Part shown: positions 14,840 to 17,614 of the stretch, one piece after another
How positions within the stretch are numbered: the first letter of the stretch is position 1
Layout: every line of letters begins with the position of its first letter
From: an uncultured Gammaproteobacteria bacterium
Lineage (GTDB): Bacteria > Patescibacteriota > Microgenomatia > UBA10105 > UBA927
Assembly: GCA_964442525.1 (NCBI GenBank)
Contig: CAYTZO010000003.1
Location: 4,721 to 65,157, forward strand
Length of the DNA: 60,437 bases
Direction of reading: 5' to 3'
Notes under the pieces: generated by a model
Told to the model about the DNA's origin: nothing
The model's database searches: none
The model's input: the letters and a program-made list of their open reading frames with translations, nothing else
Translations under genes and position numbers: made by a program

Positions 14840-15556
14840 ATGATTCGATTTGATCATGTCTCCAAACGATTCGGGCAATCGCTTGCCCTGTCCGATGTAA
14901 CCGTAGAGATCAAAGACGGAGAGTTTGTTTTTCTTATCGGTCCTTCAGGCGCGGGAAAAACGACGTTTTTGAGGCTTCTCATCCGCGACATGCTGCCTTC
15001 CCGGGGCAAGGTATTTGTCGATGATTGGGAAGTGGCAACCATGCCGAAGTCAAAAATATATGTTTTGAGAAGAAAGATAGGCATGATATTTCAGGATTTT
15101 AAGCTCCTTGAGGATCGCACTATTTTTGAAAACGTTGCCCTGGGGCTGGATATTTTAGGAAAAAAATCCTCCGAGATTGCCAAAGGGGTAAAAGATATCC
15201 TTTCCCTTGTTGGGCTTTCGAATAAATATGACATGTTTCCTGCCCAGCTTTCTGCGGGAGAATTACAACGAGTCAGTATCGCCAGAGCCGTTGTCGGCGG
15301 GCCAAGCGTGCTTTTGGCCGATGAACCGACCGGCAATTTAGATCCGGAGACGGCGTGGGGGATACTTGATATTTTGCAAGAGGTGAACAAATTTGGTACC
15401 ACGGTAATTATAGCAACGCATAACGCCAATATCGTTAATCAACTGAAAAAACGGATCCTTGCACTTTCTCACGGGATGCTGGTGCGCGATGAAGTGAAGG
15501 GATCATATCGGCCCGAGAAATCAGCCAGGGGGAAGAAGGATCATGAGAACGCTTGA
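14840..15556 (+). CDS. ftsE: cell-division ABC ATPase FtsE
   Basis: Walker A GPSGAGKTT, signature LSAGELQRVSIARA, Walker [12 protein letters not shown]. Immediately upstream of ftsX. Confidence 0.92.
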   Translation: MIRFDHVSKRFGQSLALSDVTVEIKDGEFVFLIGPSGAGKTTFLRLLIRDMLPSRGKVFVDDWEVATMPKSKIYVLRRKIGMIFQDFKLLEDRTIFENVALGLDILGKKSSEIAKGVKDILSLVGLSNKYDMFPAQLSAGELQRVSIARAVVGGPSVLLADEPTGNLDPETAWGILDILQEVNKFGTTVIIATHNANIVNQLKKRILALSHGMLVRDEVKGSYRPEKSARGKKDHENA

Positions 15557-16439
15557 AACTACATGGACGCACATTCGCCGTTCGCCGTACCAGGCGATTG
15601 CGGCGATCATCACGATGTTTCTGACATTTCTTCTGACCGGTATTTTCTTGCTTGCGGGTGTGGCTTCGACGCTTATCCTCCAGTATTTTGAAAGTAAACC
15701 GCAGATTACGGTATTTTTTGCAGATAAAGCAGGGAAGACCGAAGCGGATGCATTAACACAAAAACTCCAATCTACGGGAAAGGTTGCCTCAGTCAAATAT
15801 GTCTCAAAAGAGGACGCATTGACTATCTACCGGGAACAAAATAAAAACGATCCGCTCCTTCTTGAGATGGTTACGGCGGACATTTTGCCCGCTTCACTTG
15901 AGATTTCCGCGACTGACCCCAAGTTTCTCTCTGACCTCGCTCCCGCCATCAAAGGAGCGGAAGGGGTACAGGAGGTCGTTTATCAAAAGGATGTTGTGGA
16001 TGCGCTCGTTTCCTGGACGAACGCCATCCGCATTATCGGCATCGTTCTTGGCGGGCTTTTGGCGATCGACGCCATCCTCATTACTACCACCGTTATTGCG
16101 ATGAAGATAGCGCTCAAAAAAAGTGAAGTAGAAATTCTTAAGCTCGTTGGTGCAACGCAGGGATATATCCGATCGCCGTTTGTTTTGGAGGGAGGATTTT
16201 ACGGACTGTTTGGCGCGTTCGTTGCCTGGATTGTCATTGTGATACTTGTTATCCTTGCGCGGCCATTTCTTTTGACGTTTTTAGGAACAATACCGCCGCT
16301 CCAGATAGTGTTAGGTTCTCTCACGTCGTCATTTTTTCTCCTGACCATGGGGTCCTTTTTGGGCATTCTGCTCCTGTCGGGATTCCTTTTGGGAAGCATC
16401 GGCAGTCTCATCGCGCTTAGTCGCTACATCAAATTTTGA
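15543..16439 (+). CDS. ftsX: cell-division permease-like protein FtsX
   Basis: TM1, an extracytoplasmic domain (KPQITVFF..VASVKYVSKEDAL..), then a 3-TM FtsX bundle. Overlaps ftsE by 14 nt. Confidence 0.88.
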   Translation: MRTLETTWTHIRRSPYQAIAAIITMFLTFLLTGIFLLAGVASTLILQYFESKPQITVFFADKAGKTEADALTQKLQSTGKVASVKYVSKEDALTIYREQNKNDPLLLEMVTADILPASLEISATDPKFLSDLAPAIKGAEGVQEVVYQKDVVDALVSWTNAIRIIGIVLGGLLAIDAILITTTVIAMKIALKKSEVEILKLVGATQGYIRSPFVLEGGFYGLFGAFVAWIVIVILVILARPFLLTFLGTIPPLQIVLGSLTSSFFLLTMGSFLGILLLSGFLLGSIGSLIALSRYIKF

Positions 16440-16447
16440 GTTCATGC

Positions 16448-17614
16448 ATGGACAAAATCAAATGGTTATTGGTATTGGTTCTCCTTACTTTCCTTTTTCC
16501 CCTGAAGGTTAGTGCCCAACAGGCATGCCAGCAACAGGATCCCTGCATAAGTAAATCCGATTTCAACGAGAAAACCTCCTGCTATGCAAGCGTCGTTGAT
16601 GCCTGCAAGAGTCAGGGTCAGACGCTGTCTGGGCAGATTGACTACTTAAACAATAAGATCAGACTTATCGGTTTACAGATAGCAAATACAAAAGCAGTAA
16701 TCACCAAGCTCTCAGGGGAGATTGGTGATTTAAATGATGAAATTACCCGACTTGAGACAGTTTTGACAAAGCGATCAGAGCTTATTTTGCGTCGTATACC
16801 TGAATCATACAAGCGCGCATCCGTGCCACAGTTCGGACTCCTTTTTTTTAGCAGAGATTTTTCAGATTTTGTTGCAAGACTCAAGTATCTTGTTTCCGTA
16901 GAACAAGAAGACGCAGCGCTCATTTTTCAAGTGAAAGCAACACAAAATAACTACAGTGAACGAAAGCAGATACGGGAGGAGAAAAAGAAGGAGCAGGAAC
17001 AGGCGAAGAATCAACTCGAAGAGCAGAACAATGATCTTACGCAACAGAAACGGACAAAAGATTCGCTCCTGGTCCAGACAAAAGGTCAAGAGGCAATCTA
17101 CCAACAGCTTCTCGTGCAGGCGCTTGCCGAGAAGCAGGCCCTCGAGGGGGCCCTGTTGAGCTCTGTTAGCGTCGGACCAGTAAAAAAGGGAGACCCCATA
17201 GCATTGGTCGGTAACAGCGGTTATCCCGGCTGTTCAACGGGCCCCCATCTTCATTTTGAAGTCCGGAAAAACAACACTTGGACTGACCCCGCAGGCTATT
17301 TATCTTCCAAAACCGTGATTGACGACCAGGAGGGCGGAACATGGACAACCGGTAACGGTTCATGGGATTGGCCGCTTTCGGATCCCATCAGGATTACGCA
17401 GCGTTTTGGTCGAACCCCCTATTCTTGGGTGTATAAATACTCCGGTGGTATCCATACGGGGTATGATATGGTTTCCTCCGCCAGTCAAGTCATCCGGGCA
17501 CCCGCCGACGGGACACTCTATTCGTCCAGCCAGGCCTGCGGCACGAGTGTCATAAAGATTAAATATATCGACCACGGCGGCGGTATTGTCAGTTTCTATT
17601 TGCATGTACAATAG
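16448..17614 (+). CDS. secreted coiled-coil protein with an M23 (LytM-type) metallopeptidase domain whose two halves are in swapped order
   Basis: Signal peptide ([18 protein letters not shown]) and a roughly 180-aa coiled coil. [18 protein letters not shown] at nt 17162-17302 precedes FGRTP..[24 protein letters not shown] at nt 17366-17611. Abuts the ftsX stop. Confidence 0.85.
   Translation: [388 protein letters not shown]

Follow-up and report, generated by a model that had tools for sequence, protein, structure and literature searches.

Can the M23/LytM domain, which is among the most studied modules of cell-wall hydrolases and their activators, exist as an active circular permutant, and could such a permutant serve among the FtsEX-coupled hydrolases that are a central model of trans-membrane division control? 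The question is raised by a 60,437-nucleotide (nt) stretch of DNA (GCA_964442525.1, contig CAYTZO010000003.1, positions 4,721-65,157, forward strand), henceforth termed the window, in which the genes ftsE and ftsX are followed by a gene for a coiled-coil hydrolase. An original prediction held that the M23 domain of this protein is read second half first, with its active-site residues retained. Below, L numbers denote genomic loci and P numbers homologous proteins gathered in this analysis.

Re-reading of the sequence reproduced the open reading frame (ORF), coordinates and peptides on which that prediction was built. The hydrolase gene (16436-17614, forward strand) encodes a predicted secreted protein of 392 residues, in which a permuted M23 domain follows a coiled coil; the assignment comes from PF01551, phmmer and a scan of the re-ordered sequence. 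The whole protein scores 53.6 bits against PF01551 (cut-off 28.7), and the match is split into two stretches in reversed order, with profile positions 62-96 at residues 248-285 and positions 2-52 at residues 340-391. Two partial matches with the late half first are what had been anticipated, and a colinear full-length alignment is absent. Scanned apart, residues 240-309 match profile positions 62-96 (E 3.2e-9) and residues 310-392 match positions 2-52 (E 4.8e-5). Only when the halves are swapped in silico to the canonical order, N-terminal half before C-terminal half, does a single colinear match appear, spanning positions 2-96 with 68.1 bits (E 8e-19). Alignments by phmmer to M23 chains in the PDB display the same swap: 3slu residues 213-295 pair with query residues 311-391, and 3slu residues 301-339 with query residues 245-286. 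BLASTP against a canonical, FtsEX-linked Thermohalobacter homologue pairs coiled coil and N-terminal half in colinear order and skips the C-terminal half, which reappears as a second segment at the C-terminus of the homologue.

The order of parts can thus be read along the forward strand. The ancestral C-terminal half comes first (residues 244-290, 17165-17305; PF01551 positions 62-96 and PDB alignments) and carries H271-x-H273 (17246-17254) as well as Cys266. A Gly/Thr/Trp-rich linker (residues 291-309, 17306-17362; alignment and predicted strands 292-296 and 301-305) joins the ancestral C- and N-termini. The ancestral N-terminal half comes last (residues 310-392, 17363-17611; PF01551 positions 2-52, PDB alignments and sequence), bearing H340-xxx-D344 (17453-17467), Cys368 and His390 (17603-17605). 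The chain ends Y-L-H390-V-Q, followed by the stop codon at 17612-17614. After the stop, 5 nt lead to the next gene, and neither this side nor the stretch upstream of the C-terminal half holds an M23 remnant. An AlphaFold2 (AF2) model of the domain (157 residues, 35-sequence alignment) folds both segments into one compact all-beta domain, as had been proposed, with a mean predicted local distance difference test (pLDDT) value of 92.7 and a predicted template modelling (pTM) score of 0.88; in the full-length model (see below), the linker forms a beta-hairpin (292-305). The gene after ftsEX encodes a circularly permuted M23/LytM domain. The archetypal active M23 endopeptidases of Staphylococcus aureus, LytM and lysostaphin, share with it HxxxD, HxH and the third histidine, and both halves align to them, but they are colinear and have neither a coiled coil nor a link to FtsEX.

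The five active-site residues named beforehand are all present: H340 and D344 of HxxxD, H390 of Y-x-H, and H271 and H273 of HxH, the last of which we take, by assignment from LytM, to be a zinc ligand. Invariance of these positions in one of our alignments (A2) is partly circular, since its members were chosen by motif, and the count was therefore redone on 447 domain hits aligned to a hidden Markov model of the permuted domain without a motif pre-filter, using non-gap residues only. Histidine was found at position 271 in 425 of 425 hits, at 340 in 423 of 423 and at 390 in 409 of 409, and aspartate at 344 in 423 of 423; position 273 was His in 419 hits and Asp in 6. The five residues are essentially invariant at a mean column identity of ~26% over ~420 permuted domains. 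In EnvC-type activators, the HxH, HxxxD and Y-x-H residues are lost (PMC7668044, PMC11627006). Because the permuted family conserves what these activators have lost, residue conservation favours an active enzyme over an EnvC-type degenerate activator. H-x-D replaces H-x-H in P0168, P0366, P0369, P0371, P0399 and P0401, five of these six belonging to a Berkelbacteria-type clade.

The alternative that survives best is that the protein is a catalytically inert regulator which, like EnvC, NlpD or DipM, would activate or scaffold another hydrolase. This would follow the precedent of EnvC itself, the best-studied FtsEX-linked LytM protein and a degenerate activator (PMC7668044), and it would fit the extra CHAP hydrolase that stands beside ftsX in some related loci, as well as the fact that the NCBIfam EnvC model is the best, albeit sub-threshold, match to the protein. 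Degenerate LytM factors, however, are devoid of metal ligands, whereas the five residues are kept here across divergent homologues, and the sole substitution, His to Asp, would still be capable of binding metal; we regard an inert regulator as unlikely. The comparison with EnvC from Escherichia coli and Vibrio cholerae (6tpi, 8tzl) is nonetheless close in architecture. Both proteins are secreted, with a coiled-coil hairpin, a helix before a C-terminal domain of the LytM/M23 fold and a link to FtsEX. EnvC differs in that its LytM domain is colinear, has lost the catalytic residues and activates the amidases AmiA and AmiB (PMC7668044), whereas the window protein is permuted and retains all five. 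Against the EnvC equivalog NF008644 it scores 42.8 bits, far from the 270 that define that family, and none of the NCBIfam models reaches its cut-off on the hydrolase.

Each half of the permuted domain also carries one cysteine, Cys266 (17231-17233, within GC-STGPHLH) and Cys368 (17537-17539, within Q-x-CG), and the two co-occur. Among 385 permuted homologues, both are present in 254, neither in 124 and a single one in 7, a pattern that suggests a disulfide stapling the two halves together.

The remainder of the protein resembles known FtsEX partners. A signal peptide is predicted by eye at residues 1-27 (...PLKVSA/QQ; 16436-16516, forward strand), in agreement with a modelled helix at residues 2-20. 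The full-length AF2 model (108 sequences; pLDDT 91.6, pTM 0.75) places further helices at residues 43-60, 64-128, 132-138, 142-215 and 219-242 ahead of the beta domain at 244-391. The segments from 43 to 215 (16562-17080, forward strand) constitute a coiled-coil hairpin, presumed to be the FtsX-binding module, such that the protein combines a signal peptide and a long antiparallel hairpin (64-128 and 142-215) with an effector domain behind them. The NCBIfam EnvC model aligns to residues 54-216 (E 3e-11, below its cut-off), and Pfam CC_PcsB matches the hydrolase at a sub-threshold E of 4.6e-4. In a Foldseek search with the full-length model, the top entries were EnvC from the V. cholerae FtsEX complex (8tzl_E), E. 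coli EnvC (6tpi_A), PcsB (4cgk_A) and RipC (8idc_E), with RipC also found as 8jia_E; this ranking of EnvC, PcsB and RipC implies a coiled coil of the FtsEX-partner type. The expectation that coiled coil and ftsX-abutting position would fit the EnvC/PcsB/RipC paradigm is thus borne out by the Foldseek ranking and by conserved linkage to ftsEX (see below). PcsB of Streptococcus pneumoniae, RipC of Mycobacterium tuberculosis and CwlO of Bacillus subtilis (Foldseek ranks 3, 4 and 46) are likewise FtsEX-controlled coiled-coil hydrolases and are themselves enzymes, but their catalytic modules are cysteine peptidases of the CHAP or NlpC/P60 type instead of M23.

Between hairpin and catalytic domain lies a conserved last helix (residues 219-242, 17090-17161, forward strand; model and family consensus) with the motif TKNxE..YQxLLxQALAE..A. 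By analogy, it may occupy the position of the 'restraining arm' of EnvC (EnvC residues 222-278, PMC7668044), although that arm measures ~50 residues and the helix before the permuted domain ~24. At the other end of the hairpin, four cysteines (C31, C37, C49 and C57; 16526-16606, residues 31-57) stand just after the signal peptide and before the coiled coil. Cysteines in this post-signal position also occur in the L002 protein (four) and in P0061 and P0206 (two each), and they may form extracytoplasmic disulfides at an EnvC-like N-terminus.

A second alternative concerns the assembly of the domain: the C-terminal half of one chain would pair with the N-terminal half of another in a domain-swapped dimer formed via the coiled coil. 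Permuted and split domains are able to swap, and PcsB (4cgk) reportedly crystallizes as a dimer in which the two chains occlude each other's catalytic domains. Yet the modelled monomer is compact and confident (pTM 0.88), the old termini are ~5 residues apart in Berkelbacteria-type proteins, a spacing compatible with closure within one chain, and short proteins lacking a coiled coil, such as P0426, carry the same permuted domain. We judge assembly in trans very unlikely.

The permutation is a lineage-wide trait, which is what the original prediction had left to a survey of homologues. A search with the domain alone returned ~43 homologues of 40-75% identity over most or all of its length, and those that are C-terminally complete and were read or aligned end at Y-x-H plus one or two residues. 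When the representatives of 1.84 billion clusters (50% identity) were searched with a profile, 113 proteins matched at E<=1e-30, and in the top 150 an uninterrupted match to the full profile lay at the C-terminal end of proteins ~390-420 residues long. By a motif-order test, ~125 of these 150 top clusters, and 164 of the 207 proteins gathered by then, were single-copy permuted; the remainder were for the most part truncated fragments, tandem canonical proteins (three) and pattern misses. When 108 full-length members were made into a profile, 1258 clusters (90% identity) matched it at E<=1e-20; the best 120 were permuted without exception, their last histidine lying 2-4 residues from the end. 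At 50% identity, over 150 clusters likewise share this order and this distance from the third histidine to the end. A Berkelbacteria query revealed a second, more divergent clade ending in ...LYGHMID; of the best 120 hits to this query, 94, including a Saccharimonadales protein, were permuted. The linker varies in length and shrinks to ~5 residues in Berkelbacteria-type proteins such as that of L003. All named members are Patescibacteria (Microgenomates OLB23, Amesbacteria, Roizmanbacteria, Pacebacteria, Berkelbacteria and Saccharimonadales).

This distribution disposes of the idea that a mis-join, a frameshift or the collapse of a tandem M23 repeat distorted a canonical gene, for although tandem canonical M23 proteins exist (P0185, P0187, P0198) and their collapse could mimic a C-terminal half followed by an N-terminal one, hundreds of independently assembled homologues (33-75% identity; NCBI, JGI, ENA, Logan) share both the order and the C-terminal end, and the regions flanking the window domain hold no M23 remnant, so that an artefact is vanishingly improbable.

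Several Clostridia loci also appeared permuted, with query positions 8-156 covered, and were rejected: their ORFs are canonical, and the apparent coverage came from adding up two segments that lie in reverse order. Precomputed PF01551 marks on L081 and L082 are only 'faint', and routine domain annotation of such divergent members is weakened because of the permutation. The permuted domain is also met in unusual settings. P0131, a very large membrane protein (1256 residues), ends with it; P0189 (894 residues) and P0217 (2492 residues) are Cys-rich proteins that bear the JGI name endonuclease/exonuclease/phosphatase family hydrolase and extend ~60 residues beyond the domain; and P0426 is a short protein of 208 residues.

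The genomic context ties the permuted protein to FtsEX. In the window, ftsE, the ABC ATPase of the complex (14840-15556, forward strand), is identified by the TIGR02673 FtsE equivalog (275.5 bits against a cut-off of 264.85) and PF00005, and ftsX, the membrane subunit with an extracellular domain (15543-16439, forward strand), by PF18075 FtsX_ECD (E 1e-19) and PF02687; NCBIfam FtsX models align with it end to end at scores below their cut-offs. The start of the hydrolase is uncertain, being either TTG at 16436, which gives a 4-nt overlap with the ftsX stop, or ATG at 16448. The same overlap is present in L081 and L082. Synteny of ftsE, ftsX and the hydrolase is kept in L001, L002, L003, L081 and L082, down to 33% protein identity. 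Microgenomates-type loci keep the order from prfB to the hydrolase. The full order prfB, hypothetical gene, ftsE, ftsX, permuted hydrolase, lamin-tail-domain (LTD) gene, (VanZ), tsaE is shared by the window, L002 and L081. L082 keeps the same prfB-to-tsaE order with a gene lacking Pfam matches at the LTD position, and L001, a short contig, preserves the portion from the hypothetical gene to the LTD gene. On a Berkelbacteria chromosome, the permuted hydrolase likewise follows ftsE and ftsX.

In Clostridia, the slot after ftsEX is occupied by canonical coiled-coil M23 proteins, and one Berkelbacteria-labelled metagenome-assembled genome has a canonical coiled-coil M23 protein near ftsEX. These Clostridia proteins and those of some members of the candidate phyla radiation (CPR), exemplified by Thermohalobacter berrensis (L039, 5266-6399) and P0451, share with the window protein the slot after ftsEX, a length of ~377-408 residues, a signal peptide, a coiled coil and intact motifs, and among canonical sequences they have the highest local identity to its two halves. 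They differ in motif order, which is HxxxD, Y-x-H, HxH. Other hydrolase modules found on such coiled coils or beside ftsX point to a modular exchange of the FtsEX effector domain within the CPR. In P0429, a coiled coil closely similar to that of the window protein continues into a C39_2-like papain-fold domain, which P0440 has by Pfam call only; in L086 (2848-3984), a coiled coil of this type is joined to a CHAP-like domain; and a CHAP protein adjoins ftsX in L084 (7877-8974).

Taken with the permuted domain, these features make it probable, in our assessment, that the hydrolase is the exported partner of FtsEX in Microgenomates-type CPR bacteria, composed of a signal peptide, an EnvC/PcsB/RipC-like coiled coil, a helix and a catalytically competent permuted M23 domain. 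The protein would be exported and its coiled-coil hairpin bound by FtsX, as synteny and coiled-coil similarity suggest. Helix 219-242, the coiled coil or both would hold the enzyme in check until the FtsE ATPase cycle frees it from autoinhibition, as in EnvC, PcsB and RipC (PMC7668044). Within the catalytic domain, the ancestral C-terminal hairpin and HxH strand come first, the linker bridges the old termini and the ancestral N-terminal half comes last, such that the chain ends two residues past the Y-x-H histidine. So built, the domain would presumably bind zinc and cut peptidoglycan cross-links at the septum. The hydrolase is most likely an active, FtsEX-coupled division endopeptidase.

As to origin, a single event is most likely, in which the M23 module of an ancestral FtsEX-linked coiled-coil M23 gene was duplicated in tandem and the outer half-copies were then lost. 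Tandem M23 proteins, the type of intermediate that such a route calls for, do exist elsewhere (P0187, P0198 and P0185, the last with three copies), and among the homologues gathered none combines a tandem canonical M23 with an FtsEX-linked coiled coil.

Several observations weigh against the account as a whole. The Foldseek TM-scores to EnvC, PcsB and RipC are low (0.33-0.47), and the case for binding to FtsX is built on coiled-coil similarity and synteny. Two loci are arranged differently: in a Saccharimonadales one, ftsX is followed by a CHAP protein and the permuted gene stands upstream of ftsEX, and in L086 the gene after ftsX encodes a CHAP-like protein with a coiled coil, the permuted M23 protein being without one. 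These two arrangements imply that the FtsEX partner is not always the permuted protein. In addition, Foldseek with the isolated domain against the PDB gave no match at E<=0.001, and its best 50 rows included no M23 entry, an uninformative outcome that is to be expected of an order-dependent aligner. Matches in BFVD were weak (TM 0.39-0.47) and confined to large virion proteins, namely those of cyanophage S-TIM5 and Synechococcus phage P60 and one unnamed entry. Finally, the neighbour-joining tree of re-ordered catalytic domains (131 columns; 107 permuted and 28 canonical sequences) carries no bootstrap values and samples few canonical sequences. One of its splits separates 107/107 permuted plus 1/28 canonical sequences from 27/28 canonical ones. 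Along with the break point, which is identical in the two clades, this split is compatible with, though no proof of, the permutation having arisen once.

A bolder proposal is that the permutation is an adaptive re-wiring of FtsEX control. It joins the regulatory helix to the hairpin ahead of the HxH strand and puts the chain end beside His390. Coiled coil and helix would accordingly be attached before the HxH strand instead of at the far N-terminal strand, and tension or strand gating would act directly on active-site elements instead of displacing a 'restraining arm'. We consider this doubtful; if true, a CPR-wide lineage would activate its main division hydrolase by a mechanism of its own.

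The surrounding genes, all coordinates again those of the window, include one on either side of ftsEX and the hydrolase. Between prfB and ftsE lies a conserved membrane-anchored protein of 166 residues (14330-14830, forward strand) with no Pfam match and no assigned function; L001 and L002 have homologues of its sequence in this slot, which in L081 and L082 is taken by a similarly sized gene lacking Pfam matches. The protein may be a so far unrecognised component of the division module. Directly downstream of the hydrolase is the LTD membrane protein (17620-18435, forward strand; PF00932 E 1.2e-6, below cut-off), which has a Pro/Thr-rich stalk and a C-terminal membrane anchor. The LTD gene also follows the hydrolase in L001, L002 and L086, and in L081 one gene intervenes. 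Upstream, prfB, coding for release factor 2 (13230-14240, forward strand), is a single unbroken ORF across the region in which many bacteria have a programmed +1 frameshift. A DsbA-like thioredoxin gene lies at 11424-12224 and a secreted CAP-domain protein at 19841-20740. From 20871 to 49993, a long run of genes on the forward strand comprises nucleotide-sugar genes (NTP transferase, dehydratases, UDP-glucose dehydrogenase) and many membrane glycosyltransferases (GT2-GtrA, PMT_2, YfhO-like), and looks like an envelope glycosylation cluster. Scans for tRNAs and Rfam families across the window gave no match.

A permuted topology in so heavily studied a domain is moderately surprising, and the variant is widespread in an under-studied radiation. 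Full-text literature searches on permutation in M23, LytM, lysostaphin and EnvC, and on FtsEX in Patescibacteria and Saccharibacteria, turned up no permuted M23 domain, and among wall hydrolases they turned up permutation only for NlpC/P60. The circularly permuted NlpC/P60 families (YaeF/poxvirus G6R and LRAT-like) set a precedent in a peptidoglycan-hydrolase superfamily (PMC6403190), but they have another fold and another catalytic mechanism and do not represent a homologous event. For annotation, a dedicated profile would better capture permuted M23 proteins, which Pfam sees only partially. For protein engineering, the family indicates that the M23 fold tolerates permutation at the loop after the third histidine, which would be useful in designing lysostaphin-like enzybiotics.

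To our knowledge, cell division in Patescibacteria is almost unstudied, and the existence of a Saccharimonadales member places the permuted protein in a group with cultivable relatives. As a natural permutant in which the attachment of the coiled coil to the catalytic domain is shifted, it offers a built-in experiment on the route by which the FtsEX signal reaches the active site. In much of the Patescibacteria, the permuted protein appears to be the principal partner of FtsEX.

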